Source: Dehalococcoidia bacterium (GTDB lineage: Bacteria; Chloroflexota; Dehalococcoidia; Bin125). Taken from it: DNA of 64,000 bases. The position numbers and the translations under genes were made by a program. Shown here one piece after another: positions 6,323 to 50,610 of this stretch. The notes beneath the pieces were generated by a model. It searched no databases. It was not told where the DNA came from and worked only from the letters and a program-made list of their open reading frames with translations. Position 1 is the first letter of the stretch. Each line of letters opens with the position of its first letter. The stretch is taken from the NCBI GenBank assembly GCA_963555985.3, contig OY820591.1, forward strand, positions 1,919,085 through 1,983,084. Reading direction: 5' to 3'.

Positions 6323-6337
6323 GACAGCATCCATATC

Positions 6338-6440: not shown

Positions 6441-6540
6441 TCACCCCTCTGTCAACCAAAACACACCCCAACTCCAACACATACGAACACACATACGGTA
6501 AGCTCGACTATCCACCCGCAGAACAAGAGAGCGAGCAAAG

Positions 6541-23276: not shown

Positions 23277-23330
23277 CAGGATCGAGCGGAAGGATCAAGG
23301 CTCAACTCTACCGCGCGAGCGGGGAGTGAG

Positions 23331-25833: not shown

Positions 25834-25837
25834 TGTG

Positions 25838-26752
25838 TTAGAGCCTCGACAACGCAGGAATCGCCTCGCAAGCGAGCCGCCAAAACTCAGGATCGATTTC
25901 TGTTCCGACGCCTTCGACTCCGAGCGCCTCAGCTGCGGCGAGTGTTGTGGCGCAGCCCGCGAACGGGTCTAGCACAACACCCGTCCCCATCGGCAGCGAG
26001 GCCCGGATCAGACGCCGCAGAAAGTCTTGCGGCTTGGCGGTGGGGTGCGCAGCAACAGCTCGCTCCGAGGCGGGCGTCTTGCCGCTCTCAATCACATCGA
26101 GGAACGGGGTCTCCTCCGACAAGCGGCGCAGGCCGCCAACCTCCCAGCGGCGCAGGTTCGCCGCTACGGTCGATTCCGAGAGCGGCCGCCGATACAGGCC
26201 CCACGGCTCCCAACACGAACGCGGCATCGTACTCAGATCGGGGAATTCGTCATGTGCGCCCTTCGGCCGGTCGCCGCCGCGCAGCGTGCGCACGAGCCGC
26301 ACGATCTCGCCTCGCCGCTCAAATCCGGCTGCTTCCATCGCAGCGGCGACAATCGGAGACATCAGCGGATTGCTCGCAACGAACACGTGCCCGCCGGGTC
26401 GGAGCACCGGATAGAGCAACTCTGCCCACTCCTGGAAGAAGGCGCGCAGATTGGAGCGGTCGGTCGCGGAGTGGACGGTAAAGCGGGGAACGGGCCGCCG
26501 TTGCGCGCCGTCGAACGCCGGCGGCAGTCTCCAGACGCCGCCGCGGCCATTGAGCATCTTCGCCACCTGGGCGGCCTGGTACTCGTGCAAGCCGTAGGGC
26601 GGGTCGGTGATGACGGCGTGAACGCTGTTGGGTGGAGCATCGCGTAACCAAGCGCGGCAATCCGTCAGGTGCAGAGTCTGGCGTCCATAGCGGAATGGCG
26701 ATGGAGCTTCGGCCAGCTCGGGCAGCGGCGCTTGTTTCTCGACGCCTCGCAT
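25838..26752 (-). CDS. Beta-class DNA methyltransferase (DPPY; probable N6-adenine), no intact nuclease partner
   Basis: Motif IV ITDPPYGL near the N-terminus and motif I LDPFAGCATT near the C-terminus. Confidence 0.9.
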   Translation of the reverse strand: MRGVEKQAPLPELAEAPSPFRYGRQTLHLTDCRAWLRDAPPNSVHAVITDPPYGLHEYQAAQVAKMLNGRGGVWRLPPAFDGAQRRPVPRFTVHSATDRSNLRAFFQEWAELLYPVLRPGGHVFVASNPLMSPIVAAAMEAAGFERRGEIVRLVRTLRGGDRPKGAHDEFPDLSTMPRSCWEPWGLYRRPLSESTVAANLRRWEVGGLRRLSEETPFLDVIESGKTPASERAVAAHPTAKPQDFLRRLIRASLPMGTGVVLDPFAGCATTLAAAEALGVEGVGTEIDPEFWRLACEAIPALSRL

Positions 26753-26764
26753 GTCGCGCTCCTC

Positions 26765-26800
26765 TATCTAGAACTAATCATCATTATATAACTCATGCGG
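26765..26800 (-). promoter_or_regulatory. Possible promoter for the MTase-to-PgsA operon
   Basis: The only AT-rich patch in the area. The minus strand reads ..gttatataatgatgatt.., with TATAAT at 26787-26782, about 30 nt upstream of the methyltransferase ATG. No clear -35 box. Confidence 0.25.
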
Positions 26801-26871
26801 CCGCGCCGCAGCGCCCAGCGAGAGCGCAACTTCTTTGCCGCCATAAGAGACCGATGCATATCACTCCTGAA

Positions 26872-27100
26872 TTGCCGCATTTCCGCCATTCCGACTCAAT
26901 GAGGCATCCAGTGTCGAGCAGATACGGAGACTGGATTCCCGCGTTCGGAGACATTTGCAAGATTCCCGATCTGAGCGTTTCGTCATTCTTGCGAACGCGA
27001 GAATCTACGTCCCACCCGATACGCCGCATGGATTCCCGCCTGCGCGGGAATGACGGAAATGGGGATTTTGCAAAGGCCTGCGTTCGCGGGAATGACGGTG
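26872..27100. repeat. Family-B mosaic repeat cluster
   Basis: ..cgatacgccgcatggattcccgcctgcgcgggaatgacggaaatggggattttgcaaaggcc.. plus degenerate copies upstream. Confidence 0.8.
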
Positions 27101-27290
27101 GAGGGAGTTATGCATCAAGTCTCCATAAGCGGACATCCGATTGCCTGTGCGAGCCTGTCCGGAGACTGGCAGCGATGGCGAACGCCGGCTCTTGCTCACG
27201 GCGATCTGTTGATGTTTCGTGAACGAATGGTTAACGTCTGGTTAGCGCGAGCCGGTCGGTTGAACGCGGCTCGCAAGAGGGGAGCGGCGC

Positions 27291-27923
27291 ATGACCTTGT
27301 CCAACTTCTCCATTTGCGAACAGCTGCTGCTGCTTGGCCTCAGCGAAGACGGAGCGCTTGACCAGTTGCGCCAAGCGCGGTTGGACTATGCCATCGCGGG
27401 CGCATCGCTAATCGACCTCTCTTTCGCCGGGCGGATTGACACCGATCTCGAGCATCTGCACGTGACCAGCGACGCGCCGACCGGAGACTCGCTGCTGGAC
27501 GAGGTGCTCAACCGGATTGCGAGCGGCTCGGCGAGGCAATCCACGCTCCACTGGATTGTGCAGATTGGCGCGTACGCCCACGATCTGCGCGAAGCCCGGC
27601 TGAGACACCTACGAGCGCGGACTGTCGTTCGGGAACGAGGCGGACGCCGGCAGATCGAGTTCCGCTGGTCACGAGAGGCGAAGCTCGACCCAAGCGTCGT
27701 TGCGGGGATCCGCGAGCATGTGTTTGGGTTGCTTCGAGGCAACGAGATTCCCGATCCTGAAGACGCGGCGCTGATCAGTCTGGCGCGCGCTAGCGGATTG
27801 CTCGACGTCCTGCTCTCACAAACGGAACGCGAGCAAGTCGAACCACGCCTCCTCACGCTGGCGAAGCTCGATCTGATCGGCCGCCAAGTCAACCACATGC
27901 TCGATGAAGCCCTGGCGAGCTGA
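27291..27923 (+). CDS. GPP34/GOLPH3-family protein
   Basis: ICEQLLLLGLSEDG..LDYAIAGASLIDLSFAGRI..PTGDSLLDEVL.. matches the GPP34 family pattern. Confidence 0.8.
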   Translation: MTLSNFSICEQLLLLGLSEDGALDQLRQARLDYAIAGASLIDLSFAGRIDTDLEHLHVTSDAPTGDSLLDEVLNRIASGSARQSTLHWIVQIGAYAHDLREARLRHLRARTVVRERGGRRQIEFRWSREAKLDPSVVAGIREHVFGLLRGNEIPDPEDAALISLARASGLLDVLLSQTEREQVEPRLLTLAKLDLIGRQVNHMLDEALAS

Positions 27924-28023
27924 CAGAGGCTCTTGCACCAGGCTCCACCCCACCATACCCGCGCTCGCCACGGGCGGCTTGCCATGATCGACGCCGAGGT
28001 CAACTGGTCGCCGCAGACGGTGT

Positions 28024-33691: not shown

Positions 33692-35113
33692 TTAGAGCTG
33701 ATTTCTCATGCTGGCGATGCGGCCGCGGTCGAGCGGCGGGAGGTGGAAGAACTCGATCCGGGTGGTTGGAGCTTGGGGCCGGGGTTGGGCCAGCTCGTGG
33801 CAGTAGCGGTCGGCGTCCAGGAGGTCGTCGTCGCGGTCTCGGGGTTGGGGGTTGGCGGCGCGGGGGTCTCGCCACTGGTACTCGCGCATCCGGCGCGGGA
33901 ACTGGACGAGCTCGGGGGTGTAGAAGGAGGTGGGCGGGTCGTTCGAGAGGCGTTCTTGGACCAGGCCGATGCCCTGGTGGACGGAGCCGGGCCCGCCCCG
34001 GCTGGGGCGGATGTCGCGCCCGCGGCGGTGGAGGTGGTCGATCCAGGCGGATTGGCTGCGGTCGGCGTTCCAACTGATCGAGCCGAAGCGCCGGCGGCAG
34101 TGGAGCATCCACTGTTCGAGCCGTTGAGTGACGCCGGGGCCGCGGTCCTCGAACTCGGCCAGGCGGATGAGGACATTGGGTCCGCAGACGGCGTAGCGGG
34201 CGGTGAGGCCGGCGACGATGCCGGCGGTGTAGTGGGCCTGCTCGGTCTGGGCGCCGAAGTCGAGGCCGCCGAGGTAACGCTCGAAGCTGGGCAGGCGCTT
34301 ATCCCAGAGGTGGCGTTTGGGGTCGAACTTGGGGTAGACCAGACCCTCGAAGGCGTCGAAGCGGCCCTCGATGAAGCGTTCGACCCAGTCGGGCGGGAGC
34401 AGGGCGCGTTGCTGTTCGGCGTAGTTGTCGGGCAGATGGGGGTTGTCCTCGATCTTGGCGGGGATGAAGACTGCTTGTCCGCCGGCGTGCTCGAGTTCAG
34501 CTTTGTTCAGTTCGCGTTGGACGAACCAGCGCTCGAACCAGCCTGGGTGGGGGTTGGAGGCGGCCACGAACCAGCGTTGCGGTTGGGCCGGGTGGCGGAG
34601 TCTGGTCAAGAGCATTTGGGCGGCTTCTTCGGCGACTTCGCCGGCTTCGTCGATCAGGACGGTGCCGTACTGCTGGGAGCCGAGGCCGGTCCAGTCGGAG
34701 AGATGGCGAAAGTGGATCGTGGAGGGTTCGCTCGAGTACTGGAGGCTGCTGACCGTGAGGGAATGGGTGGGTGAACTGCGGCGTTGGACGGTGAGGTCGG
34801 GGTCAGCGGTGCAGATGCGCAGGAACTCGCCCATGGTCGTGGTGTAGAGGTCTGTGAACGTGTCGCGTGCGAGCAGGATGTTGTTGCCCGGGAAGATCAA
34901 GGCCGCGTCCAGGGCGAGCTCGGCCAGGGCGCGGGTCTTGCCGCCGCCCATGGCGCCGCCGTAGCCGACCAGGGCGAGGCCGGGATTGGGCACGGTAGCG
35001 ACTGCGCAACAGAGCTCGCGCTGTCTGTCCGTCGGAAAAAAACCGCGAGACTTGTGCAAGCGGTCGAACGCAACGACCGCCCGCTTTGAGCTGGGGGTAT
35101 TACTGTGGCTCAT
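33692..35113 (-). CDS. Phage terminase large subunit
   Basis: Walker A GYGGAMGGGKT, Walker B ..GTVLIDEAGE.., and a C-terminal RNaseH-like nuclease region ..DDDLLDADRYC.. Confidence 0.85.
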   Translation of the reverse strand: MSHSNTPSSKRAVVAFDRLHKSRGFFPTDRQRELCCAVATVPNPGLALVGYGGAMGGGKTRALAELALDAALIFPGNNILLARDTFTDLYTTTMGEFLRICTADPDLTVQRRSSPTHSLTVSSLQYSSEPSTIHFRHLSDWTGLGSQQYGTVLIDEAGEVAEEAAQMLLTRLRHPAQPQRWFVAASNPHPGWFERWFVQRELNKAELEHAGGQAVFIPAKIEDNPHLPDNYAEQQRALLPPDWVERFIEGRFDAFEGLVYPKFDPKRHLWDKRLPSFERYLGGLDFGAQTEQAHYTAGIVAGLTARYAVCGPNVLIRLAEFEDRGPGVTQRLEQWMLHCRRRFGSISWNADRSQSAWIDHLHRRGRDIRPSRGGPGSVHQGIGLVQERLSNDPPTSFYTPELVQFPRRMREYQWRDPRAANPQPRDRDDDLLDADRYCHELAQPRPQAPTTRIEFFHLPPLDRGRIASMRNQL

Positions 35114-35784: not shown

Positions 35785-36825
35785 TCCTAGTCTCACAGAC
35801 GAAGTGCGACAGATGATTGAGGTGAGCCCATGGGCGCGCAGTACACGCAGTTGGACCTGGCGGAGCGATGCGCGGTTGCCCGCTTACAGGCCGAGGGGCG
35901 CTCGATCCGGCAGATCGCTGCAGCTCTGGATCGCTCGCCATCGACGATTGCTCGAGAGCTGAAACGCAACACGGCGCGCGACGGCTACCGTCCCGACTAC
36001 GCCCAGCAACAGGCCCAGGCGCGGCGCTGGCGCGGTTCGCGGCTGGAACGCGACGATCAGCTGCGCGCGCGGGTGCTGCGCGAGTTGGCCCGCGGGCTCT
36101 CGCCGCAACAGGTCGCAGGCCGGCTGGCGCGCGAGGCGGGCGCGCCGGTGATCTCGCACGAGAGCATCTACCGCTTCATCTACGCCCAAGCCTCGCGGGC
36201 CAAGCCCGGCCGCGGCGGCGGTTGGCGCCAGTATCTGCCGCGGCGCAAGGCGAAACGCGGTTGGCGCGGGCGCAAAGGCGGCAGTTCGGTCGAGCGCATC
36301 CAACTGCGGCGGCCCCTGAGCGAGCGCCCGGCGGCGGCCGCCGGGCGGCTCGAAGCCGGTCACTGGGAGGCCGACCTGATGCTCTTCGGGCGCGGCGGTC
36401 CGCTCCTGCTGATGCTGCACGAGCGCTCCTCGCGGCTGCTCGTGGGCTTGCCCGTGGCGGGCAAGGCGGCCGCTCCGGTCGCGCGCCTGCTGCTCAGCCT
36501 GCTCCGCGCCTGGCCGCCCGCCCTGCGGCGCACGGTCGCGTTCGACAACGGGACCGAGTTCGCCCGCCACTACGAACTGCACCGGCTGGGCGTGGAGACC
36601 TTCTTCTGCGACCCCTACGCGCCCTGGCAGAAGGGCGGGATCGAGAATGCGATCGGACGCCTGCGCCGGGTCCTGCCGCGCCGGCTCGACCTCGCCCAAC
36701 TCAGCCTCGCGCGTTTGATCGAAGTGCTGCAGTTGTACAACAACACCCCCCGCCAGTGCCTCGACTACCTCTCCCCGGCCGAAGTCTTCGGTCGGCAGTT
36801 GTTGCAGTTGCAATGTGAACCCACC
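35785..36825 (+). mobile_element. IS30-family insertion sequence (~1.04 kb; boundaries inferred from the interrupted repeat)
   Basis: The flanks ..ccgcatggatt | IS | ttcccgcctgcgcgggaatgacgg rebuild an intact family-B module (compare 27023-27056) with a putative 2-bp TT duplication. Terminal inverted repeats are only weakly recognisable by eye. Confidence 0.6.
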
Positions 36826-36846
36826 TTCCCGCCTGCGCGGGAATGA
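35830..36846 (+). CDS. IS30-family transposase
   Basis: N-terminal HTH ..GRSIRQIAAALDRSPSTIARELKRN.. and a DDE core ..GHWEADLM.. The last 7 codons and the stop lie in the flanking repeat. Confidence 0.88.
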   Translation: MGAQYTQLDLAERCAVARLQAEGRSIRQIAAALDRSPSTIARELKRNTARDGYRPDYAQQQAQARRWRGSRLERDDQLRARVLRELARGLSPQQVAGRLAREAGAPVISHESIYRFIYAQASRAKPGRGGGWRQYLPRRKAKRGWRGRKGGSSVERIQLRRPLSERPAAAAGRLEAGHWEADLMLFGRGGPLLLMLHERSSRLLVGLPVAGKAAAPVARLLLSLLRAWPPALRRTVAFDNGTEFARHYELHRLGVETFFCDPYAPWQKGGIENAIGRLRRVLPRRLDLAQLSLARLIEVLQLYNNTPRQCLDYLSPAEVFGRQLLQLQCEPTFPPARE

Positions 36847-39464: not shown

Positions 39465-39470
39465 GTGGTT

Positions 39471-39625
39471 GGGGGACCCCCCTCTGTCACTTCGTGACAT
39501 CTCCCCCCGCAGTGCGGGGGGAGAGGCTCCGGGTTTAGGGGGTTGGGTGCTGGATGTGGCGTTTCACCCCCTCTGCCCCGTTGGGGCATCTCCCCCTTGA
39601 GGGGGAGATTCTTGGGGGGGCGGGG
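39471..39625. repeat. Family-A mosaic repeat cluster (short form plus A3 module)
   Basis: gggggacccccctctgtcacttcgtgacatctccccccgcagtgcggggggagagg.. followed by gcgtttcaccccctctgccccgttggggcatctcccccttgagggggagattcttggggg. Confidence 0.85.
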
Positions 39626-39666: not shown

Positions 39667-40434
39667 ATGGGGCGGACTTGGCGGCTGGTGTGGTTGATGG
39701 GGCTGGCGCTGGGGGCGGCGGTGGCGGCGGCTTGCGGTTCGGGTGGGGAGGAGTCTGCGGCGGCGCCGTCTCAGGCTCAGACGGAGCAGGCGCAGGTGGC
39801 GCAGGCTGCTGAGGAGGTAGCGCAGGAGGGGGAGTCGGTGGGGCCGCAGGCACCTGAGGCGGAGCCGGAGGGGGAGGAGCAGGGGGATACGGTGACGGTG
39901 GTGTCGGTGAGTTATCACAAGGGGGTGGCGGCTGAGCGGCATGTGTTGGGAGAGCCGGATGCGCCGGTGGTGATTTTGCACTTTGGGGACTTTCAGTGAC
40001 CGTTTTGCCAACGTTTCACGGCTCAGGTTGAGCCGGTGATCATTGAGCGGTTGGTGACGACGGGGATTGCGCGTTATGAGTTCCGGCAGTTCCCGGTGTT
40101 GGGCGAGCGGTCGGTCTATGCGGCGCTGGCGACGGAGTGCGCGGCGGATCAGAACGAGTTCTGGCCGCTGCATGACCGTTTCATGGCGAATGACCGGACG
40201 CTCTATACGGAGGGGGGTCTGCGGCGGCAGGCGATTGCGGAGGGGATGGACGCGGACGCGCTCTTTGAGTGCATCCGCGAGAATGCGCATCTCGAGGCGA
40301 TCCAGGCGTCGCGCGCCGAGGGTCAGCGGCGGGGGGTGACGGCGACGCCGACGATCTTTGTGAACGACGTGAAGGTGGATCCGACGCTGGAGGCGATTTT
40401 GGCGGCGGTCGCCCAGGCGGGAGACGGCTCGTAG
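39667..40434 (+). CDS. DsbA-like thiol:disulfide oxidoreductase, predicted selenoprotein (U-P-F-C; TGA 39997-39999 read as Sec)
   Basis: Track ORFs 39631-39999 and 40036-40434 share one frame with no other stop between them. Context is ..VVILHFGDFQ-TGA-PFCQRF.. The downstream half has DsbA features (..ATECAADQ.., cis-Pro loop TATPTIFVN). Signal peptide MGRTWRLVWLMGLALGAAVAAAC. A hairpin lies downstream (next feature). Confidence 0.75.
40017..40038 (+). promoter_or_regulatory. Putative bacterial SECIS hairpin for the 39997 TGA
   Basis: cggctca-ggt-tgagccg is a perfect 7-bp stem that can be extended with a bulge. It starts 20-22 nt after the U of TGA. The same sequence class follows the two paralog TGAs. 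Confidence 0.65.
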
Positions 40435-40455: not shown

Positions 40456-41259
40456 ATGAGTGCGACGCGGACGTGGGTACTGGGGCTTGCGGTGGCCGGC
40501 GTGCTGGCGGCGCTGTCGGCGAGCGCTTGCGGCTCGCAGGGGGACGGCGAGCAGCCGGAGCAGCCGGTCAGCTATCAGGCGGGGGCGACGGAGACGACGG
40601 AGCGGCCGGATCGCCAGTCCACGGTTGCGGCCGGCCAACCGGATCAAGCCGAGCAAGCTGAGCAGAGCACGATCGATAGCGAACAAGCCGATGCGGAGCC
40701 TGAGGATGACGGCGCGGTCAGGGAAGTGCTGCGGCGTCACCGGGAGGGGTTGCAGGCGAACCGGAATGTGGTGGGCGATCCGAATGCGCCGATCACGATT
40801 GTGGAGTATTCGGACTTTCAGTGAAGCTCCTGCCGCCGGTTCGCGGCTCAGGCTGAGCCGCAGATTATCGAGGAAGTGGTGCGGACGGGGCTGGCGAAGT
40901 ATGAGTACCGGCACTTTCTGATTTTTGGGGCGCAGTCGGAGTTTGCGGCGCTGGCGACGGAGTGCGCGGGGGATCAAGGTCACTGGTGGGATTTCCACGA
41001 TGAGTACATGACGGGGAATGCGGTGCGTTATACGCGCAAGGGGGCGCTGGAGTACGCGGCTGAGCTGGGGATGGACGGTGAGGAGTTCAGTCAGTGTCTG
41101 GAGGACGGTCGTCATTTGGGCCGGATCGAGGCGATGCAGCGTGAGGCGTATGAGCGTGGGATACCGGGGACGCCGACGATCACGATTAATGGCGAGCGGG
41201 TGGGGAATTCGCCGGCGACGATCATTCGCCGGGTACGGGAGTTGGCCGGGGTGGAGTGA
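40456..41259 (+). CDS. DsbA-like thiol:disulfide oxidoreductase, predicted selenoprotein (U-S-S-C; TGA 40822-40824 read as Sec)
   Basis: Track ORFs 40456-40824 and 40876-41259 share one frame. Context is ..ITIVEYSDFQ-TGA-SSCRRF.. The downstream half has ..ATECAGDQ.. and cis-Pro loop IPGTPTITIN. Signal peptide ..LAVAGVLAALSASAC. Confidence 0.75.
40843..40861 (+). promoter_or_regulatory. Putative bacterial SECIS hairpin for the 40822 TGA
   Basis: gcggctca-ggc-tgagccgc is a perfect 8-bp stem with a 3-nt loop, starting 21 nt after the U of TGA. Confidence 0.65.
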
Positions 41260-41295
41260 GGGGGTTTTGGGGGATATGAGTGTACGGATCGCTTA

Positions 41296-41493
41296 GGGGA
41301 CCCCCCTCTGTCCCCCCGCCTTCGCGGGGGCAGGCTCTACGGGACATCTCCCCCCGCAAGGGGGGAGAGGGGAGCTGGGGTTTGGGGTTGGTAGTGCTCA
41401 CGGCGAGATACCCGCGGCAAGCGCGGGTATGACGGAGCTGTGGGCGCGGGAATGACGGAATGTGGGATTACGCGCAGGTCTCCTTGAGGGGGA
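41296..41493. repeat. Mosaic repeat cluster (A long form plus B2 plus B modules)
   Basis: ggggacccccctctgtccccccgccttcgcgggggcaggctctacgggacatctccccccgcaaggggggagagggga.. and ggcgagatacccgcggcaagcgcgggtatgacggag.. Confidence 0.85.
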
Positions 41494-41498
41494 GCGGG

Positions 41499-41705
41499 TT
41501 AGGCGGGGTCGTCTTTGGGGTGGGGGGTGTGGAGAGGGAGCGGGGTGCGCTGGGATTGTTTGCAGCGGCGGCAGCGCCAGACGACGACGATGTGGGCTTC
41601 GTAGTCGTGCTCGACGACGCTGTGGAGGGCGGGGCGGCCGTTGTGTTGGACGCTGGGGCAGTCGGGGTTTTGGCAGCGGACTTCCTGCTTGTGCGGGCCG
41701 GTCAT
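41499..41705 (-). CDS. Small zinc-ribbon protein (68 aa)
   Basis: ..VRCQNPDCPS.. and ..WRCRRCKQ.. form a CxxC..CxxC arrangement. Lies immediately downstream of the portal-like gene. Confidence 0.45.
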   Translation of the reverse strand: MTGPHKQEVRCQNPDCPSVQHNGRPALHSVVEHDYEAHIVVVWRCRRCKQSQRTPLPLHTPHPKDDPA

Positions 41706-41747: not shown

Positions 41748-43694
41748 TCAGGGATGGGGGACGCGCTCGTCGGCGGGATCGGTGAGCGGGGAGAGCGGGG
41801 GCAGGTGGGCGCGAGTCGTGATCGAGGCCGCCGAGCTGGGTTGGGTCTTGGCGGACGGGCTGACGGTGGCGAGTTCGCGCTCGAGTTCGGCTTGCTCGCG
41901 ACGCCAGGCGCGATGCCGGGCGAGCGTTTCGGCGGCGTGCTCGTCGCCGATGTACTGCTCCAGATAGGCGCGCTGGTCAAGCGGATCGAGTGGATCATTG
42001 AGGCGGGCTCGTCCATGTTCCTGGACGGCGATGCGCTGGGCGGTGGAATAGGGATCGATCCAGACGTCGATATCGAGTTCGGCGAGTTGTTCGGGGGGGA
42101 CGCCGACGGTTTCGCTGCGGCGCACGCGCCCGTCGCCGGACTTGGCATAGGTCCAGACCGGGCCGCCGAAACCGCCCTCGGCGAGGGGCTTGGACATGAC
42201 CAGGGCCATGTTGCGCAGCATCACCCGCACCGCGCGGGCTTGATTGCGCTTGAGTTGTTGCACCTGCAAGCTGCGCGAGCCGAGCAGCAGATTGAGCGTG
42301 TGGGGTTGGGTGTTGGGGCCGATCTCGCCGCGTTCGACCGCGCCCGCGTCGGGGGCGGCGGCGATCAGTTCGTCGGCGGACATGCGCAGGAATTCAACGA
42401 AGGCGGGGTCGATCCGAAACTCGATGCGGTGCAGCGATGCGCCCTGGGGGAGGGTGCGCGCGGCGGCGGTATCGGGCGTCAGGGCGACCCGGTTGCCGTC
42501 ATCATCGGTCTGCCAGGAGCCGTCGGCGAGTTGGACCCAGTAGAGCGGGAGCGCGGTCTGTTCGGCGAGGAAGCGTCCGAGTGAACGCTCGTAGTCGTAG
42601 CCCGGCTTGACGCGATAGACGCCTTCCATCGCGGGTTCCCAACGGTAGAGCGGATCGGGATGTTCGTTGACGTCGGCCTCGGCCAGGACGAAGGGCGGCA
42701 TTTCGTAGGGATGGGGATGGGACTTGATCAAGAGCCAGCGGTCGTTGGCGGGGGCGGGGGCGGCCAGTTCGTAGTACTCGCGGCGGGTCCAGACGGAGGC
42801 GACGCGGATGCGCTCGCCCCAACCGTCCCCCGACGGTTCATCGGCCTGGGGCGCAGCGGCCGGGCTGCCGATCGCCAGTGAGGGTTCGTCACCGAGCCGA
42901 TGTAGGCGAAGCTCGATGCGGTCTTGACGGCGCACGCGATCGCGGTAGTCGAACAGAGCCAGTTCACGGAGGACGACCGCGAGTCCAAGTCCGTTGCCGG
43001 CCCCGCGATCTTCGATGAAGGCGAACTGATCGGGGCGGATGACCTCGATTTCCCAAGGGAAGCCGGCGTTGGCCTGCGCCTGCCGATCGCGGTTACGGCG
43101 GCTCGCTTCGGTTTCGATCCAGTCGGCGTCGGCGTGATCGTTGGGTTGTGCGCGGCGGAAGCGTTGTCGTTCGCCGGGGTCGCGCGGCTCCGTGTCGCGG
43201 GTTTCGGCGGGCGGATAAGCGGGCAGCCGGTCGAGCGCGCGTTGCCAGTGAAGCACGCCGAAGCAAAGGCAAACCTGTCCATAGCCGAGCGCGGCCTGGA
43301 TGTTGATGCCGCTGCGTTCCTGGAGCAGGCGCAGTCCGTGCTCAAAGACGTGTTCGAGATCGTCGGCGGCGCGGCGGGCCGCGTCGGACTGATCGGGCGG
43401 CTCGACGTGGACGCGCAAGGGATGCTCGGTCAGGCGCTGGCGGAGCTGCGCCCAGGTGCGTCGGAGCAGGTCGGTCTGCCACGGTTCGGCCTTGCTGTGA
43501 GTCTTGTCGAAGCGGGGATTGACCGCTTCGCTGTTGTAGAGGTGCTGCTCGCGGTGGAGGATGCGGTCATGCAGAACTCCGAAGCGAGTCAGCGCGCCGC
43601 CGCCGGCGCGTCCGCGTCCGCCTCCCAACTGTTCGAGGATGCGATTGAGGTCGTCCTCGGAGAGGGTGTGTGCCAAGATTCGGTTGTGCGACAT
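41748..43694 (-). CDS. Putative phage portal protein
   Basis: About 648 aa from ATG 43694; the track offers an alternative start at 43712. Size and helical/acidic pattern look portal-like, and other phage head genes are in the window. No diagnostic motif can be verified by eye. Confidence 0.5.
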   Translation of the reverse strand: MSHNRILAHTLSEDDLNRILEQLGGGRGRAGGGALTRFGVLHDRILHREQHLYNSEAVNPRFDKTHSKAEPWQTDLLRRTWAQLRQRLTEHPLRVHVEPPDQSDAARRAADDLEHVFEHGLRLLQERSGINIQAALGYGQVCLCFGVLHWQRALDRLPAYPPAETRDTEPRDPGERQRFRRAQPNDHADADWIETEASRRNRDRQAQANAGFPWEIEVIRPDQFAFIEDRGAGNGLGLAVVLRELALFDYRDRVRRQDRIELRLHRLGDEPSLAIGSPAAAPQADEPSGDGWGERIRVASVWTRREYYELAAPAPANDRWLLIKSHPHPYEMPPFVLAEADVNEHPDPLYRWEPAMEGVYRVKPGYDYERSLGRFLAEQTALPLYWVQLADGSWQTDDDGNRVALTPDTAAARTLPQGASLHRIEFRIDPAFVEFLRMSADELIAAAPDAGAVERGEIGPNTQPHTLNLLLGSRSLQVQQLKRNQARAVRVMLRNMALVMSKPLAEGGFGGPVWTYAKSGDGRVRRSETVGVPPEQLAELDIDVWIDPYSTAQRIAVQEHGRARLNDPLDPLDQRAYLEQYIGDEHAAETLARHRAWRREQAELERELATVSPSAKTQPSSAASITTRAHLPPLSPLTDPADERVPHP

Positions 43695-43852
43695 GCGAGC
43701 GCCTTTCACCACACGGGAATGGGTAGGCGCTCAATAGTGAAATGTCAGTTCGCTGATGTCAAGATAGAATGAAGGACTTGTGTTGTCTGGGATGCGTGTT
43801 CTATAGGAAGCGGACATAACGGAGTCGAAGAGGCGATATCCGCATTGGTCGC

Positions 43853-43901: not shown

Positions 43902-44855
43902 TTAGTTCTGATCGTCCAGCGCCGCCTGGACGGCCTCGATGACTGAGGCGGCGTTCGCTCCGACGCGGCGGCCGTCTACGTAGATGGCGGGAGTGCGAAG
44001 GCGGCCGCCGGGATCGCCGGCTTCGGCTCGGGCGCGGCGGGCGGCGGCGTTGATCGTGGGAACGTGGGTGTTGCGATCGAGGCAGCGTTCGAACCGGGCG
44101 GCGTCAAGCCCCAGTTGTTGGGCCAGCCAGACTGCGCCTGCGCGTTGATAGAGGCGGTGGAAGCCCTGAGGCGGGATTGGTTCGGCCCTGGTCATGTAGG
44201 TGTCGTGGAATTGCCAGAAGGCGCCTTGATCGGCGGCGCATTCGACCGCTTCGGAGACGAACTCGCTCTGCGCGTGCTGGAGGACGTGGACGAACTCGAT
44301 CCGGGCGAGTCCGCTTCTGACCACTGCTTCGATGATCTGCGGCTCAGCCTGAGTCGCGTACCGCTGGCAGAGGGGTCACAGGAAGTCGCTGTAGTCGATG
44401 ATCAGGACGGGGGCCTGGGGATGTCCGAGGAGGTTGCGGTCGTGGAGGATGCCGGCGAGTTCGCCTTCCTGGATCGCGGCCGGATCGATTTGGGCGCTCA
44501 CGGCTCCGCCGCTGTAGTAGAGGCGGCTGGAGGTTGAGAGCTCGAAGTCGGCGGCGCCCGGCAGGTTCCGTCCGCCGGCGTCGGCGGCGTAGCCGAGCCA
44601 GCGCGAGCCGTCCCAGAGCCACAAGGCGCGAACGCCTGTGGCGCGCAGGCGAGCGCCGTGCTCTCGCCACAACTCGGAGGCGGTTGCGCCGGGCGCCCAG
44701 GTTGGCCAGGCGATGCGCTGATCGCCGAAGGAGAGGTGGAGTCCGCCGGTGTCTTCGGGTCCGTGGGCGTCGGCGTGAGTGTGGAAGCCGATCGCGCCGG
44801 CAAGGATGAGCGCGCAGAGGAGGAGGCGTAGGGCGGCGGGGTTTGGGGGTGTCAC
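43902..44855 (-). CDS. DsbA-like thiol:disulfide oxidoreductase with an extra N-terminal domain, predicted selenoprotein (U-P-L-C; TGA at 44378-44376 read as Sec)
   Basis: Track ORFs 44376-44921 and 43902-44324 share one frame. Context is ..VLIIDYSDFL-TGA-PLCQRY.. The downstream half has ..AVECAADQ.. and the loop RTPAIYVDG. The start is tentatively GTG 44855, just ahead of the signal-like LRLLLCALILAGAIG; the track start lies inside a repeat. Confidence 0.7.
44339..44357 (-). promoter_or_regulatory. Putative bacterial SECIS hairpin for the 44378 TGA
   Basis: The minus strand reads gcgactca-ggc-tgagccgc, an 8-bp stem with one A/C mismatch, starting 21 nt after the U of TGA. Confidence 0.6.
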
Positions 44856-44872
44856 GGTTGGCAAGATAGCTG

Positions 44873-45046
44873 CGGGGGTTTGCCGGACCCCCGCTGTCGC
44901 TTCGTGACATCTCCCCCTCAAGGAGACTTGTGCATAAGTCGATTTTCTCCCGTCATTGCCGCGGCGGAGCGCGGCAATCTCGCTGTGCGCACGACGATGG
45001 TGCAGATAAGGGCGTCATACCCGCGGCAAGCGCGGGTATGACGAGG
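44873..45046. repeat. Mosaic repeat cluster (A short form plus B2-type hairpins)
   Basis: ..ggacccccgctgtcgcttcgtgacatctccccc.., gtcattgccgcggcggagcgcggcaat.., gtcatacccgcggcaagcgcgggtatgac. Confidence 0.8.
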
Positions 45047-45090
45047 CTTGTTGGAGAGGGGATGAGAGGGTTGCGGTTGTTGCGGGGGTC

Positions 45091-46329
45091 TTAGTTTTGG
45101 GCGACGGCGCGGACGGCGACGGTTCCGCCTTCGAGGGGGTCGGTGATTTGGCCGGCGAGGCCGGGGTGGGCGGCGGGACGGTCGAAGTTGATGGAGGCGA
45201 GGTTGGCGAGGTAGTCGTCGTACTGGCGCTGGCGCAGGTTCTTGAGCTTGTCCAGGCCGGCCTGGAGGTTTTCGAGGCCGCCGGCGAGGAGGACGATCAG
45301 GGCTTCGCGCTCGGAGGTGCTGAGGCGCATTTCCTGGACGAGGGAGGCTTCGGCGCGGAGGAAGGAGATGGGCAGGCGGCGGTCGGCGTCGGGCTTGTAG
45401 CGGTCGTACCACTCGAGGTGTCCGAGGCCGTAGTCGAGGTGGCGGCGGGAGTCGGCGGCGATGCGGGCGAAGATGTCGCGCTCGACGTCGGTCTGGGCCC
45501 ACTCGGAGGCGGACTCGAAGAGGGTGACTTCGTAGCTTTTGTAGACGACGTTGAGGGCGATGATCATGTCGGTGAAGGTGAGGCCCTGGTACCAGCCACG
45601 GTAGATTTGACCGAGTGGGGCTTGTCCGAGGCCGCCGCCGTTGATGAGGGCGCGCTTGCGGAGGACTTCGACCTTGCGTCCGGCGTCGAAGGCTTGGGTG
45701 GCGAGGAAGAGCTTGACTTCGTGGAAGCCGTAGGAGATTTCTTCGAGCCAGCGGCCGATGATCTTCTGCTCGACGAGGCCGTTGTTGCTGTAGACGGTGC
45801 AGATTTGTCCGACGGCCTTTTCGAGTTCTTCGGGCAGTTCTTCGAGGCCGTTGGCCCAGTCGAGTTCGGTGGCCGGAGTCCAGCGGGCCTTGATGGCGTC
45901 TTCGTAGAGGTCGACGGCGTTTTCGGACCAGACTTCGGCCTTGTCGAAGATGGAGTAGCCGGCGGCCATGATCTGACCGGTGGTTTCGGTGCCGCGGGGG
46001 GCGTCGTTGGGGAGTTGCCAGTTGTCTGGGACGACGCCGTAGCTGCCGATGTTGATGTCGCGCAGGCGGAGACCGTCGGGGCCGGGCGTCGCCTTCAATC
46101 CAACCTCCGCCGGAGAGTTGAAGATGTTGAAGGGGGCCTTGCCGAAGGGGTTGTCGGGATGGTTTTCGAGGAAGTCGAGCCAGCCGTTGATTTTTTCTTC
46201 GCTCAGTTCGCCCCGGGCCAGGTTCTCGACTTGCTTGTCGGTGGCTTCCGAGGCTTCGATGCGTTCGAGGAGTGCGTCGGACCAGCCAGCCTTGCGGGCG
46301 CGGACTTTGGTCATGGTGGAGAGTTGCAT
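45091..46329 (-). CDS. Ferritin-like (diiron-carboxylate fold) protein with degenerate metal ligands
   Basis: Clear paralog of the next gene: LFLATQAFDAGRKVEVLRKRALINGGGL aligns with LFLGTQLMDEARHLDVFRKRTLINGGGM, and AADSRRHLDYGLGHLEW aligns with AQDESRHLAFGVTHLKY. Both ExxH glutamates are replaced. Confidence 0.75.
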   Translation of the reverse strand: MQLSTMTKVRARKAGWSDALLERIEASEATDKQVENLARGELSEEKINGWLDFLENHPDNPFGKAPFNIFNSPAEVGLKATPGPDGLRLRDINIGSYGVVPDNWQLPNDAPRGTETTGQIMAAGYSIFDKAEVWSENAVDLYEDAIKARWTPATELDWANGLEELPEELEKAVGQICTVYSNNGLVEQKIIGRWLEEISYGFHEVKLFLATQAFDAGRKVEVLRKRALINGGGLGQAPLGQIYRGWYQGLTFTDMIIALNVVYKSYEVTLFESASEWAQTDVERDIFARIAADSRRHLDYGLGHLEWYDRYKPDADRRLPISFLRAEASLVQEMRLSTSEREALIVLLAGGLENLQAGLDKLKNLRQRQYDDYLANLASINFDRPAAHPGLAGQITDPLEGGTVAVRAVAQN

Positions 46330-46515: not shown

Positions 46516-47562
46516 CTAGTTGTCTTCGCCGACGAGGGCTCGGACTTCTGGGGCGAAGCGTTCGGCGCGGTCGAGGCCGATCACTTCGAGGCGGTGGGCG
46601 TACTCGACGAACTGCTTTTTGCGCATGAGCATGACCATGTTGTAGCCCTCGTCGAGGTGTTCAATGCCGCCGCCGGAGAGGATGGCGAGGGCTTCGCCGG
46701 TGAGGGGGTTGGTGGTCAGGCTGGTCTGCTGGCTCTGGGTGAGGAGAGCTTCCTGCATGTCGAGGATGTGGTGCAGTTCTTCCTTGCGCCAGGGTTCGGT
46801 TTCGACGGTGTACTTGAGGTGGGTGACGCCGAAGGCGAGGTGTCGGGACTCGTCCTGGGCGGAGAGGCGGAAGATGCGCTTCTCGGCTTCGTTCTGGGCG
46901 ATCAGTTCGCCCATGCGGAAGAGGGTCTGGACGAAGCCCTCGCCGACGAGGTGGAGGAGGGCGGTCATTTCGGTGAAGTCGTCGGAGCTGAGCAGCTGGA
47001 CGGCGCCGATGCCGGCGCCGGACATGCCGCCGCCGTTGATGAGGGTGCGCTTGCGGAAGACGTCGAGGTGTCGGGCTTCGTCCATGAGCTGGGTGCCGAG
47101 GAAGAGCTGGGACTCGAAGAATTCGGGGTGAATCTGTTCGAGGAAGCGTCCGGGGACGTCGCCGGCGATGAATTCGACCTGAGTGAGGAAGGTGCAGAGG
47201 GTGCACATGGCGCGCTCGAGGTCGGGGGACATTTCGTCGATGGTGTCCCAGGGGATGTCGCGGGCAGAAGACCACTGGCGCTGAAGCGCCTCTTCGTAGA
47301 GCAGCATGGCGGATTCGGTCCAGACGTCGGCCTTGTTCATGTGCTGGACGCTGTTGGAGGGCGAGCGTGGGTCGGCGGCGGCGCCGCGCGGGGCCCACTG
47401 TCGCTGGCGGGCTTCGTCGCGGTCGTCGACGCCGTAGGTGAGTTGGTTGATCGTCTCCAGCGTGAGCCCTTTGCGCCCGGTCTCGATCTCCATGCCCTGC
47501 TCGGTATCGACGTTGAGCCAATCGAGGTTGATTCCGGGGAGGTCGTGCTGAATCGTGGCCAT
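46516..47562 (-). CDS. Ferritin-like diiron-carboxylate protein (putative oxygenase catalytic subunit)
   Basis: Two ExxH motifs (MDEARH, QDESRH) plus single-Glu helices. The start is set at ATG 47562, with GGAG 9 nt upstream; the track ORF starts at 47622. Confidence 0.75.
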   Translation of the reverse strand: MATIQHDLPGINLDWLNVDTEQGMEIETGRKGLTLETINQLTYGVDDRDEARQRQWAPRGAAADPRSPSNSVQHMNKADVWTESAMLLYEEALQRQWSSARDIPWDTIDEMSPDLERAMCTLCTFLTQVEFIAGDVPGRFLEQIHPEFFESQLFLGTQLMDEARHLDVFRKRTLINGGGMSGAGIGAVQLLSSDDFTEMTALLHLVGEGFVQTLFRMGELIAQNEAEKRIFRLSAQDESRHLAFGVTHLKYTVETEPWRKEELHHILDMQEALLTQSQQTSLTTNPLTGEALAILSGGGIEHLDEGYNMVMLMRKKQFVEYAHRLEVIGLDRAERFAPEVRALVGEDN

Positions 47563-47683
47563 CAGTGCGCTCCAGGTGTTCTGAGGCGGACGTCGCAGGT
47601 CCGCGGGTGGTTTGGGAGGCATGGTACATGGTCGGGTTAGTTGGTGCAGAATCGGTCTACGTGCAGCGCGCTAGACTGCGCGC

Positions 47684-47959: not shown

Positions 47960-49132
47960 GTGTATCTGACGCTGCTTGAATTGTCCGAGTTTCGTTCGTG
48001 GGCGCGAATTGAGCTGGCGCTCGAGCCTGGATTGACCCTGATCTCGGGTCCTAATGCGGCGGGGAAGTCGAACCTGATTGAGGCGCTTTATCTGCTGGCG
48101 GCGCTGCGTTCGACGCGGGCGTCGGTAGAGGGTGAGTTGATTCGCTGGGGGGCGGACGCGCCGCAGACGATGCGCATTGCCGGCACGGCCGCGACCCGCG
48201 CAGGGGAGGTGGAGGTAGAGGTGGCGGTGTCGGCGCGATCGGGGACTGCGGGCGGGGGCGCGCGGATGCGGACGGGCGCTCCCTTGACGAGCAAGCGGAT
48301 TCGGGTGAACGGGGTGCCACGGCGGGCGGCTGAGGCGCTGGGCGCGATCCGAGCGGTGCAATTCACGACGCTCGATCTGGAACTGCTGACTGGTTCGTCG
48401 TCGCTGCGCAGGCGCTACCTCGATGTGGCGATCGGTCAGTTGCGGGCGGGTCATGCGTCTGCGCTCTCGCGTTATCAGCGGGCGCTGCAACAGCGCAATG
48501 CGCTGCTCAAGCGGGTTGCGGCGCATCAGGCGCGCGCATCGGAGTTGGAGCAGTGGGACGGGTTGCTGGCTTCGGCTGCTGCGCCGATCTGGAGATCGCG
48601 CTCGGCGGCGACGGCGGCGCTCGCGGCGGCTGCGGTAGTGCGGCACACTGAGTTGCGAGCGGGCAACGAGGCGCGGGAGGAGTTCGCACTGCGTTATGTT
48701 CCGGCACTGCCGGACGGTGCGAATGGCGAAGACTGGGAGGGCGCGATGGGGGATGCGCTCGCTCAGGGGCGCGGGCGCGATCTTGCACGGGGCAGCACTC
48801 AGATCGGGCCGCATCGGGATGAGTTGGCGATTGATCTGGATGGGCGGCCGGCTGCTGCGTTCGGCTCCCGCGCCCAGCAACGCGCCTGCGCGCTCGCGCT
48901 GCGGCTGGCGGAGGCGGACTATCTCGAGGCCGGCTCCGGCGAAGCGGCGATTCTGCTGCTGGATGACATCTTCAGCGAACTCGATCCTGATCGGCGCGAG
49001 CGTACGGCGTCGGCGCTCGACGGTGCGGAACAGGTGATCCTCACGACGGCGGATACGGATTCGCTGCCGGACGGCCTAGACAACCTGTCGGCGGCGTGGA
49101 CGATTGAGGATGGGCGGCTGCGCGGTCGCTAG
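47960..49132 (+). CDS. recF: DNA replication and repair protein RecF
   Basis: N-terminus LELSEFRSW..ISGPNAAGKSNLIEALYLL (Walker A), signature ..GSRAQQRACALALRLAE.., and Walker B ILLLDDIFSELD. Confidence 0.9.
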   Translation: MYLTLLELSEFRSWARIELALEPGLTLISGPNAAGKSNLIEALYLLAALRSTRASVEGELIRWGADAPQTMRIAGTAATRAGEVEVEVAVSARSGTAGGGARMRTGAPLTSKRIRVNGVPRRAAEALGAIRAVQFTTLDLELLTGSSSLRRRYLDVAIGQLRAGHASALSRYQRALQQRNALLKRVAAHQARASELEQWDGLLASAAAPIWRSRSAATAALAAAAVVRHTELRAGNEAREEFALRYVPALPDGANGEDWEGAMGDALAQGRGRDLARGSTQIGPHRDELAIDLDGRPAAAFGSRAQQRACALALRLAEADYLEAGSGEAAILLLDDIFSELDPDRRERTASALDGAEQVILTTADTDSLPDGLDNLSAAWTIEDGRLRGR

Positions 49133-49156: not shown

Positions 49157-49846
49157 ATGTCCACTGCCGATGCCTCATCCACCGCCCAAACCTTGGTCCG
49201 CTTCCGCCTGCCGGAACCGCCGGAGCGGAATCCCGACGAAGTGACTTCTTACGACTACGTCCATCTGACCGGCAACCCGCATTTCCTGGCGCAGCATTTC
49301 GCCCAGCCCGAGACGACGCTCGTCAGCGCGGAGCGCTACCTCGTCGCCGCTCGCGGCTCTCGACTGCGCCGCGTCCCCGACCTGCTGATCGCCTTCGACG
49401 TCGATCCCGAGCTGTACTACGAGCAGAACGGCTACGTGATCGCCGACCAGGGCAAGCCGCCCGATTTCATCCTCGAGGTCGCTTCGCCCAGCACGGCGAA
49501 GATCGACACGGTCGACAAGCGGCGCGACTACGCCGCCCTGGGCGTGCGCGAGTACTGGCGCTTCGACCACACGGGCGAGTGGCACGGCGCGCGTTTGGCC
49601 GGCGACCGCCTGGTCGGGGAGCGCTACGAGCCGATCCCGATCGTGGAGTTGTCGCCCGGCGTTTTGCAAGGCGAGAGCGAAGCCTTGGGTCTGTGGCTGC
49701 GCTGGGAGCAAGGCGCGCTCGGTTGGTACGACCCGGCGACGGGGCGGCACATCCCTACCTTCGACGCGGAGCGGGAAGGCCGCTTGGCTGCGGAAGCGCG
49801 GGTGCGGGAGCTTGAGGCGGAGTTGCGGCGGCGCGGGGAGCGCTAG
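49157..49846 (+). CDS. Uma2-family endonuclease, tandem copy 1
   Basis: ..PDLLIAFDVD..PPDFILEVASPST..RRDYAALGVREYWRFD.. Coiled-coil tail ..ARVRELEAELRRRG. Confidence 0.85.
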   Translation: MSTADASSTAQTLVRFRLPEPPERNPDEVTSYDYVHLTGNPHFLAQHFAQPETTLVSAERYLVAARGSRLRRVPDLLIAFDVDPELYYEQNGYVIADQGKPPDFILEVASPSTAKIDTVDKRRDYAALGVREYWRFDHTGEWHGARLAGDRLVGERYEPIPIVELSPGVLQGESEALGLWLRWEQGALGWYDPATGRHIPTFDAEREGRLAAEARVRELEAELRRRGER

Positions 49847-49878
49847 CGGCGTATCCTCCAACCACCGACCGGAGCGAC

Positions 49879-50610
49879 ATGTCCACTGCCGATGCCTCAT
49901 CCACCGCCCAGACCTTGGTCCGCTTCCGCCTGCCGGAACCGCCGGAGCGGAATCCCGACGAAGTGACTTCTTACGACTACGTCCATCTGACCGGCAACCC
50001 GCATTTCCTGGCGCAGCACTTCGCCCAGCCCGAGTCGACGCTCGTCAGCGCGGAGCGCTACCTCGTCGCCGCTCGCGGCTCGCGACTGCGCCGCGTCCCC
50101 GACCTCCTAATCGCCTTCGATGTCGATCCCGAGCTGTACTACGAGCAGAACGGCTACGTGATCTCGGACCAGGGCAAGCCGCCCGATTTCATCCTCGAGG
50201 TCGCCTCGCCCAGCACGGCCAAGATCGACACGATCGACAAGCGGCGCGACTACGCCGCCCTGGGCGTGCGCGAGTACTGGCGTTTCGACCACAGCGGCGA
50301 GTGGCACGGCGCTCGGTTGGCCGGCGACCGCCTAGTCGGCGAGCGCTACGAGCCAATCCCGATCGTGGAGTTGTCGCCCGGCGTCTTGCAGGGCGAGAGC
50401 GAGGCCCTGGGTCTCTGGCTGCGCTGGGAGCAGGGCGCGCTGGGTTGGTACGACCCGGCGACGGGGCGGCACATCCCTACCTTCGACGCCGAGCGCGAAG
50501 GCCGCTTGGCTGCAGAAGTACGAGCAGATACGGAGCGAGCGGCGCGGTTGGCTGCGGAAGCGCGGGTGCGGGAGCTTGAGGCGGAGTTGCGGCGACGGGG
50601 AGGGCGGTAG
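49879..50610 (+). CDS. Uma2-family endonuclease, tandem copy 2
   Basis: Nearly identical to copy 1 at a 722-bp offset. By eye there are 4 substitutions in the first ~200 aa plus a 14-aa insertion, EVRADTERAARLAA, in the tail. Confidence 0.85.
   Translation: MSTADASSTAQTLVRFRLPEPPERNPDEVTSYDYVHLTGNPHFLAQHFAQPESTLVSAERYLVAARGSRLRRVPDLLIAFDVDPELYYEQNGYVISDQGKPPDFILEVASPSTAKIDTIDKRRDYAALGVREYWRFDHSGEWHGARLAGDRLVGERYEPIPIVELSPGVLQGESEALGLWLRWEQGALGWYDPATGRHIPTFDAEREGRLAAEVRADTERAARLAAEARVRELEAELRRRGGR

Follow-up and report, generated by a model that had tools for sequence, protein, structure and literature searches.

The minus strand at positions 43902 to 44855 of a 64,000-nucleotide stretch of a Dehalococcoidia bacterium genome (Chloroflexota; GenBank assembly GCA_963555985.3, contig OY820591.1, positions 1,919,085 to 1,983,084 of the forward strand; the whole stretch is referred to below as the window) carries a gene, here called P3, which contains an in-frame TGA codon followed by a short hairpin. 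Two related genes of similar construction, P1 and P2, lie nearby on the plus strand. With TGA read as selenocysteine (Sec, U), P3 is a complete gene of 317 amino acids including Sec160, running to the stop codon TAA (43904-43902) and encoding a secreted DsbA-like protein of the Thioredoxin_4 family. Here we present the evidence that P3 very probably encodes a secreted thiol-disulfide oxidoreductase with selenocysteine as the attacking active-site residue, its UGA codon being served by a hairpin that resembles a selenocysteine insertion sequence (SECIS).

A preliminary description of this DNA, made from the sequence alone, proposed that the minus-strand open reading frames (ORFs) 44376-44921 and 43902-44324 are in one frame and joined by the TGA at 44378-44376, forming a third UxxC DsbA-like paralog on the strand opposite to the other two. 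Both proposals are borne out. In the minus-strand frame from 44921 to 43902 this TGA is the single interruption, flanked by the residues ..VLIIDYSDFL-TGA-PLCQRYATQAEPQII.. (in longer context ..APVLIIDYSDFL-TGA-PLCQRYATQAEPQIIEAVV..). The Thioredoxin_4/DsbA-like domain (Pfam match) covers amino acids 142-315 (43911..44432, minus strand), and the TGA codon (44376..44378, minus strand), read as U160, occupies the position of the N-terminal Cys of a CxxC motif. Besides the active-site motif U160-P-L-C163, the domain has a cis-Pro motif (T288-P289) and a second pair of Cys residues, C206 and C258; in an alignment of P3 with Cys-form homologs, the columns U/C160, C163, C206, C258, T288 and P289 are invariant.

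For profile scoring of the three paralogs against Pfam and NCBIfam, the UGA-encoded U was read as C. The Thioredoxin_4 model (PF13462, cut-off 23.2 bits) matches P3 with 60.3 bits, P1 with 108.9 bits and P2 with 101.8 bits, while the DSBA model (PF01323) scores above its cut-off for P1 and P2 and not for P3. The best curated NCBIfam family for all three is NF041057, the "Rcas_1661 family thioredoxin-like (seleno)lipoprotein" (E-values from 1.6e-33 to 1.1e-44). The scores of P3 (116.3 bits, aligned only to profile positions 82-215), P1 (130.9 bits) and P2 (152.9 bits) all fall below its equivalog cut-off of 190, and P1, P2 and P3 are therefore related proteins rather than members of this family. 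The NCBIfam DsbG model gives P3 18.3 bits against a cut-off of 124, through the thioredoxin part only.

The paralogs P1 (39667-40434, plus strand; TGA at 39997-39999, hairpin at 40019-40035) and P2 (40456-41259, plus strand; TGA at 40822-40824, hairpin at 40843-40861) are UxxC DsbA-like lipoprotein genes, with the active sites ..HFGDFQ-U-PFCQRFTAQVEPVII.. and ..EYSDFQ-U-SSCRRFAAQAEPQII.., respectively. Protein identity among P1, P2 and P3 is 37-47%. A lipobox-like Cys is seen by inspection in P1 (..VAAAC/GSG) and in P2 (..SASAC/GSQ), and both proteins consist of a lipoprotein-type signal, a low-complexity acidic linker rich in Q, E and A, and the thioredoxin domain. The window was scanned for in-frame TGA codons with at least 50 stop-free codons on each side and a coding-like GC content at third codon positions. 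The only credible cases in the 64 kb are the three DsbA-like genes, the remaining hits being neighbouring genes that share a frame by chance, or antisense shadows.

Relatives of P3 fall into forms with Cys and forms with TGA at the codon of U160. The Cys-form protein homologs are single polypeptides that align end to end across the thioredoxin domain, and in all Cys-form homologs, namely the proteins P0002-P0006 and 56 genes from 80 loci (L001-L080), the residue opposite U160 is the first Cys of CxxC. These 80 loci came from a scan of genome contigs, in which all were Cys-form with at most 41% identity and no Sec-containing relatives were found; they served as a negative control. A DNA pattern scan of metagenome contigs, in which the hairpin was imposed only as far as the peptide Q-x-E-P dictates it, gave the loci L083, L084 and L085. 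In L083 (Ga0209543_1000181, 4348-7362, minus strand), four UxxC DsbA-like lipoprotein genes lie in tandem, all with the same signal, linker and thioredoxin layout as P1 and P2. L085 contains two UxxC genes. L084 (Ga0326728_10050143, 3315-3361, plus strand) encodes two DsbA-like domains, the first with Sec (UPYC) and the second with CSDC. Orthologs of P3 with the same build, in which the TGA is followed by the rest of the domain in frame, are present in L086, L087, L088, L091, L092 and L093. There are thus 20 further genes with TGA at the U160 codon on seven other contigs (L083, L084, L085, L086, L087, L088 and L091, plus L092 and its duplicate L093), and in total 23 genes on eight contigs have TGA at this codon and no other disruption. 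The idea that P3 is orthologous to L083a in particular, based on a shared A.C mismatch and a shared "ATQ", was considered and is not claimed, the identities of P3 to the four L083 paralogs being alike (33-39%).

Selection was measured on each side of the TGA by comparing P3 with its orthologs, at a synonymous divergence (dS) of ~1.1-1.9 across the comparisons. Against its two closest orthologs (~71% amino-acid identity, dS ~1.3-1.5), P3 has a ratio of nonsynonymous to synonymous substitution rates (dN/dS) of 0.16-0.17 before the TGA and 0.11-0.13 after it; for the more distant L088 the two values are 0.30 and 0.38, respectively. Since dN/dS is low on both sides, both halves are kept as protein.

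The hairpin of P3 (44339..44357, minus strand, 19 nt), gcgactca-ggc-tgagccgc, comprises the arms and loop GCGACUCA-GGC-UGAGCCGC (also written GCGACTCA-GGC-TGAGCCGC). Its first base lies 21 nt from the T of the TGA, as proposed in the preliminary description, leaving a spacer of 18 nt. The stem has eight positions, of which seven are paired and one is an A.C mismatch, with four base pairs above the mismatch. P2 has a perfect 8-bp stem (gcggctca-ggc-tgagccgc), and P1 a 7-bp stem with a GGU loop (cggctca-ggt-tgagccg). The earlier statement that the same element is kept in all three paralogs thus stands as to the presence of the hairpin in P1, P2 and P3, but not in its details, as P1 departs from it in stem length and loop and reads ..TAQVEPVII.. 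in place of TQAEPQII. A search of the window for the 19-mer with up to three mismatches gave four matches (both strands at 44339-44357 and at 40843-40861) against 0.14 expected. The same hairpin is present in 19 of the 20 further TGA-containing relatives. In the twentieth, the more distant L084, the TGA is followed by an unrelated hairpin of 8 bp, CAGUUUGC-GUU-GCAAACUG, placed 6 nt closer to the UGA; the distance from UGA to loop is accordingly 20 nt in L084 and 26 nt in P1, P2, P3 and the 19 relatives with the same hairpin.

In the published consensus model of bacterial SECIS elements, the apical loop has 3-9 nt and the upper stem 4-16 bp (PMC13188914 Fig. 2), a G lies at the first or the second loop position, mostly within the motif N1-G-[G/U]-N-N2 with N1 and N2 paired, the UGA is 16-37 nt from the apical loop, and the minimum free energy is -7.5 kcal/mol or lower (PMC13188914). 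The P3 hairpin falls within all four of these constraints, with a 3-nt loop, the apical motif A-GGC-U, a distance of 26 nt from the UGA and a minimum free energy of -9.0 kcal/mol, the weakest of the three paralogs (-15.4 kcal/mol for P2 and -13.0 kcal/mol for P1). The apical motif is A-GGC-U also in P2, A-GGU-U in P1, and A-GUU-U in L083c and L085a. A consensus computed with RNAalifold on nine sequences is exactly this hairpin, and a local run on 17 longer sequences returns a shorter version of it. In folds of single sequences the UGA region pairs with codons +14 to +20 to extend the lower stem; this extension was rejected as not conserved, RNAalifold on the 17 sequences retaining the apical hairpin only.

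The preliminary description also argued that selection acts on the RNA structure, and several comparisons bear this out. In the codon-aware alignment of the three paralogs, a comparison chosen beforehand as a possible refutation, the hairpin proved more conserved than the flanking codons: nucleotide conservation peaks in the seven codons from +6 onward, where 17 of 21 nt agree, the median being 8. From codon +7 to codon +13, each of the three has the third-position series G,T,G,T,G,G,G, despite the amino-acid differences A/T/A, A/A/T, A/V/A and Q/V/Q. Columns with the same amino acid use the same codon in 6/6 (P2-P3) and 3/3 (P1-P3) cases inside the hairpin, compared with 38% and 37%, respectively, outside it. 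When P3 is compared with three orthologs, an amino acid common to both proteins has the same codon in 7/7, 6/6 and 6/6 cases in the hairpin and in 46-55% of cases elsewhere.

The opposite orientation of P3 makes it a natural control that separates selection on RNA from selection on protein. Codon usage in this genome is strongly strand-biased, plus-strand genes favouring codons that end in G and minus-strand genes those that end in C (the GCG:GCC counts are 310:94 and 95:381, respectively). Third positions in P3 follow the minus-strand bias (61% C, 20% G, 6% T), with the exception of the seven hairpin codons, none of which ends in C (0/7). When P3 was recoded synonymously with strand-matched codon usage, the observed folding energy was reached in 2.3-2.7% of trials; on a 36-nt segment around the hairpin, the corresponding figures are 5% for P2 and 8% for P1. 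Across 14 aligned sequences, pairing holds in 93% of cells; shifting the 3' partner by 1-3 columns lowers this to 26-35%. In L083a, a U-A pair is replaced by C-G through ACC on the 5' side and a GAG-to-GGG change on the 3' side, a compensatory change that costs an E-to-G substitution. In the Cys-form homologs (n=56) only 0-5 of the eight pairs are possible at the same positions, and the single one with the same Q-x-E-P peptide allows two of the eight. As judged from these sequence comparisons, the hairpin offers an unusually clean demonstration of selection at the RNA level that can be distinguished from selection on the protein.

In the mechanism that we propose, the hairpin, whose apical loop begins 26 nt downstream of the UGA (44378-44376), would be bound by SelB, the elongation factor specific for Sec, carrying Sec-tRNA(Sec), so that Sec is inserted and termination avoided. 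Translation then runs on through the rest of the thioredoxin domain, as the purifying selection downstream of the TGA indirectly shows. The signal peptide would export P3 across the membrane, where, to judge from its fold and motifs, the U-x-x-C site may exchange disulfide or selenylsulfide bonds with envelope proteins.

Several observations weigh against this proposal. Genes for selA, selB, selD and tRNA-Sec were not found in the 64-kb window, which contains no tRNA gene at all, nor were they found in the related loci. The hairpin has no Rfam match at gathering or permissive thresholds, nothing SECIS-type or otherwise relevant being returned. Taken alone, the P3 hairpin is no more stable than shuffled sequences (z = -0.83); its thermodynamics are unremarkable because of the A.C mismatch, and the weight of the argument therefore lies on conservation. 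The covariation amounts to a single compensatory pair among the 14 sequences, which 33 of 500 shuffles also reach, and a second mismatch is present in the hairpin of the L086 ortholog. A semi-conserved peptide, AQxEPxI, which also occurs in some Cys-form homologs, accounts for part of the conservation at the nucleotide level. Selenium incorporation at U160 is itself a prediction. As to the Sec machinery, its presence elsewhere in the source genome is plausible, since some Chloroflexi decode Sec (PMC1794560) and NF041057 is named after Rcas_1661, a locus tag of a Chloroflexota bacterium.

The explanation that comes closest to competing with Sec insertion, though we consider it improbable, is that the UGA is read through without Sec, a near-cognate or suppressor tRNA inserting a standard amino acid (Cys, Trp or Gly) under stimulation by the hairpin, or UGA being partially reassigned. 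Hairpins 3' of stop codons are in principle able to stimulate read-through, and the failure to find the Sec machinery in the window would fit. However, TGA also serves as an ordinary stop codon in the window, for example at the end of P2 (41257-41259), which makes a genome-wide reassignment unlikely. This reading is further opposed by the confinement of credible in-frame TGA codons to three catalytic-Cys positions in 64 kb, by the exact coincidence of this position with the one at which known UxxC selenoproteins of the thioredoxin fold have Sec instead of Cys, and by the fit of the loop to the SelB-type consensus.

It is less probable still, and in our estimate very unlikely, that the locus makes two separate products, from a 159-aa ORF (44379-44855) and a 140-aa ORF (43902-44324), with the hairpin acting as an intercistronic or regulatory element. 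Public gene calls do split all of these genes at the TGA (P0153, P0017, P0018, P0020 and P0154-P0156, and the gene tables of L087, L091 and L092), but such a division would run through the active site of one thioredoxin domain, leaving an N-terminal part that would end one residue short of the CxxC and a C-terminal part that would lack β1, the catalytic nucleophile and a signal peptide. Moreover, in-frame coding sequence is conserved through the 17 codons that separate the TGA from the next start downstream (GTG 44324), the Cys-form homologs are single polypeptides, and the purifying selection on both halves argues strongly against independent ORFs.

Least probable of all is that these genes are pseudogenes, in which a TGC-to-TGA nonsense mutation (a single base change) arose in redundant paralogs and the hairpin was inherited or homogenised by gene conversion, a process by which tandem paralogs can swap short tracts; this is effectively refuted by dN/dS of 0.11-0.17 downstream of the stop at dS ~1.4, and is further opposed by the 23 otherwise intact genes with a stop at exactly this codon, by the compensatory change in L083a, and by the nature of the conserved tract, which coincides with the stem-loop and is retained by orthologs from different genomes as well as on both strands, whose codon biases are opposed.

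The N-terminal part of P3 distinguishes it from its paralogs. The preliminary description proposed GTG 44855 as the start codon, the annotated start being placed inside a repeat. TTG 44921, the most distant start in this frame, indeed lies within intergenic repeats (44877-44917 and 44911-44937), and GTG 44855 is supported as the start because the public gene call P0153 spans exactly 159 aa from this GTG to the TGA, because the L086 ortholog has an ATG start (MTRPP..) that follows ggaggaagg and is aligned with GTG 44855, and because this start produces a signal peptide. A TTG three codons upstream of GTG 44855 may serve as an alternative start. The signal peptide, read from the sequence (amino acids 1-30, 44766..44855, minus strand, MTPPNPAALRLLLCALILAGAIGFHTHADA), ends in ..GFHTHADA/HGPED with a predicted signal-peptidase-I site ADA/HG. 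It has no lipobox, its sole Cys (C14) lying by inspection in the hydrophobic core after L-L-L. The signal peptides of the orthologs are equivalent, ending in ..TDA/HGPE or ..ADA/HDPE.

The signal peptide is followed by an N-terminal module (amino acids 31-129, 44469..44765, minus strand). The preliminary description attributed about 130 extra N-terminal residues to this copy. The difference in length is in fact only ~50-60 aa (317 aa against 255 and 267 aa), although a real conserved domain of unknown function is present, as had been supposed. The module comprises ~75-100 aa, with a core of ~60 aa of the pattern ..ELW..L...GV.ALWLWDG..W..Y......PG..DF.., and is rare, with nine representatives at E <= 1e-3 in an exhaustive phmmer search of 1.84 billion representative proteins. 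Three of the nine, P0017, P0018 and P0020 (148-162 aa), are N-terminal fragments that end exactly at the TGA (..IIDYSDFL or ..YYGEFL); a profile search with the module added P0153 (159 aa, 100% identical) and three more such fragments, P0154-P0156. The module is also found at the C-termini of an arylsulfotransferase-like protein and of three further secreted proteins, and a 3001-aa protein with PKD, TIG and lectin domains contains 13 copies of it.

Structure prediction, which the preliminary description had proposed for the N-terminal domain, yielded a folded module. The AlphaFold2 model, based on a nine-sequence alignment, has a predicted local distance difference test score (pLDDT) of 79.5 and a predicted template-modelling score (pTM) of 0.70, and consists of a β-hairpin, one helix and further strands. 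The module has no Pfam or NCBIfam family match, no significant sequence match in the PDB (best E 0.057 in a profile search) and no significant fold match in a Foldseek search against the PDB (none at E <= 0.001; best E 0.19 with a template-modelling score of ~0.35, to FHA domains), and DsbC/DsbG entries are absent among the top 50 Foldseek matches listed. Weak similarities to the fucose-lectin RSL (E 1-3) and to FHA domains were rejected as noise. Its presence on unrelated secreted proteins and its 13-fold repetition in a giant surface protein hint that the module is most likely a general extracellular binding or anchoring domain, and not a dimerisation domain of the DsbC/DsbG type. Relative to P1 and P2, P3 has lost the lipobox and acidic linker and carries this extracellular module in their place. 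We regard it as possible, if rather doubtful, that this W-rich module is a new type of extracellular domain for binding or anchoring, so far restricted to a group of Chloroflexota that are marine and possibly associated with sponges, and that it replaces the lipid anchor of one enzyme in a conserved set of three to four Sec-containing DsbA-like proteins, in a lineage whose oxidative folding in the envelope is selenium-dependent and spatially differentiated, with two membrane-tethered enzymes and one bound to the wall or to a substrate.

UxxC selenoproteins of the DsbA-like and DsbG-like types are established bacterial families, known from a survey of the Sargasso Sea and from later catalogues (PMC1088965, PMC1794560, PMC13188914), and the 2026 catalogue ties the "DsbG-like protein, UxxC" to NF041057 (PMC13188914). 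P3 resembles the DsbA-like selenoprotein family ("DsbA-like protein form 1", PF01323) in its DsbA-type fold, in having Sec for the first Cys of CxxC, in the small-loop hairpin with G located in the coding region after the UGA, and in the abundance of Cys-form homologs. It differs in matching PF13462 and not PF01323 above threshold, in its extra N-terminal module, and in that three (in L083, four) Sec-containing paralogs occur in one locus. NF041057 likewise has Sec or Cys at the same position, and P1 and P2 share its layout of signal, linker and thioredoxin domain, whereas P3 lacks the lipobox and all three paralogs remain under the equivalog cut-off. The locus tag Rcas_1661 belongs to the Chloroflexota bacterium Roseiflexus castenholzii. 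P1-P3 are best described as DsbA-like UxxC selenoproteins related to the Rcas_1661 family but outside it, and the P3 subtype is a domain-architecture variant.

The Cys-form DsbA/BdbD-type oxidoreductases of Gram-positive bacteria, Chloroflexota and archaea, Thioredoxin_4 proteins represented by the loci L001-L080, are exported proteins with the same domain, cis-Pro loop and second Cys pair; they have Cys and 0-5 of the eight pairs where P3 has Sec and the hairpin. P3 differs from the DsbC/DsbG isomerases in its N-terminal domain, whose top 50 listed Foldseek matches include none to these isomerases. The prototype bacterial SECIS is that of Escherichia coli fdhF (PMC13188914). The P3 hairpin is comparable to it as a stem-loop within the coding sequence just 3' of the UGA, with a loop motif of G then G/U at a set distance; there is, however, no sequence similarity, and the P3-type stem is short and perfect or nearly so, with a loop of 3 nt (5 nt if the A-U pair opens) and no conserved lower stem. 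General knowledge of selenoproteins and SECIS elements is left unchanged by these genes, the undescribed N-terminal module being the only part with discovery potential. Reading the TGA as Sec restores complete active-site enzymes from gene calls that are split into two "hypothetical" ORFs, and marks this Chloroflexota lineage as a user of selenium, with three to four exported Sec disulfide oxidoreductases, an unusual number, in one conserved locus.

The gene order around P3 is common to the window, L087, L091 and L092, consisting of a recF-like gene, two ferritin-like genes, the P3-type gene, a gene of 652/654 aa and a zinc-ribbon gene, followed on the opposite strand by the P2-type gene, the P1-type gene and DUF885. 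The order in L083, with its four tandem paralogs, is different. Directly upstream of P3 in the window lies a 412-aa gene of unknown function (45091-46329, minus strand), preceded by a 368-aa gene of unknown function (46516-47622, minus strand); both have sub-threshold similarity to R2-like ligand-binding oxidases (E 2e-4 and 5e-8, respectively), a family of ferritin-like di-metal proteins. The corresponding lengths in L087, L091 and L092 are 348 and 412 aa. In L091 the P3 ortholog begins 8 nt past the stop of the 412-aa gene and, because of this short gap, probably shares a transcript with both ferritin-like genes; the window differs in having repeats inserted between the 412-aa gene and P3. 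Downstream of P3, a 654-aa protein is encoded at 41748-43712 (minus strand), which has no Pfam, NCBIfam or PHROGs match and is 68% identical in L083; L087, L091 and L092 have a called gene of near-equal length in the corresponding place. The next gene in every case encodes a zinc-ribbon-like protein of 68-70 aa with two CxxC pairs (41499-41705, minus strand, in the window).

Intergenic repeat families resembling repetitive extragenic palindromic (REP) sequences occur at 39467-39620, 41291-41507 and 44877-45079, one of them with the palindromic core ATACCCGCGGCAAGCGCGGGTAT (41408-41434 and 45013-45039). The zinc-ribbon, 654-aa and P3 genes lie between the two copies of an inverted repeat, at 41468-41494 and 44911-44937, which are 89% complementary. 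A simple inversion of these three genes relative to L083 via this repeat was considered and rejected, since the two orders differ by more than one step and L087, L091 and L092 are arranged as the window is.

The remainder of the window is rich in genes for acyl-CoA dehydrogenases, CoA-transferase III, luciferase-like monooxygenases and phosphotriesterases. The two strands differ very strongly in composition: the plus-strand GC skew ranges from about 0 down to -0.24 until ~23 kb and is positive, up to +0.39, from 28 kb, whatever the gene orientation. This change of sign at ~23000-28000 has the look of an origin of replication; no enrichment of DnaA boxes is seen near the switch, and a Pfam scan of the predicted genes of the window found no dnaA or dnaN, only the recF-like gene (47960-49132). 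A lone phage terminase large-subunit gene (33692-35113, minus strand; Terminase_6N/Terminase_3; PHROG 2, E 1.3e-26) lies beside an IS30-like transposase gene (35830-36846, plus strand; HTH_38 and rve), with no further phage genes recognised. A terminase-like gene occupies the same relative place beyond DUF885 in L087, so that it seems a conserved gene and not one belonging to a recent prophage. Three DinB_2 genes (4334-5930, plus strand) and two Uma2-family endonuclease genes (49157-50610, plus strand) are arranged in tandem. A further thiol-redox gene, of the Thioredoxin_9 family (E 1.4e-24) and without an in-frame TGA, is located at 21780-22487 on the plus strand.

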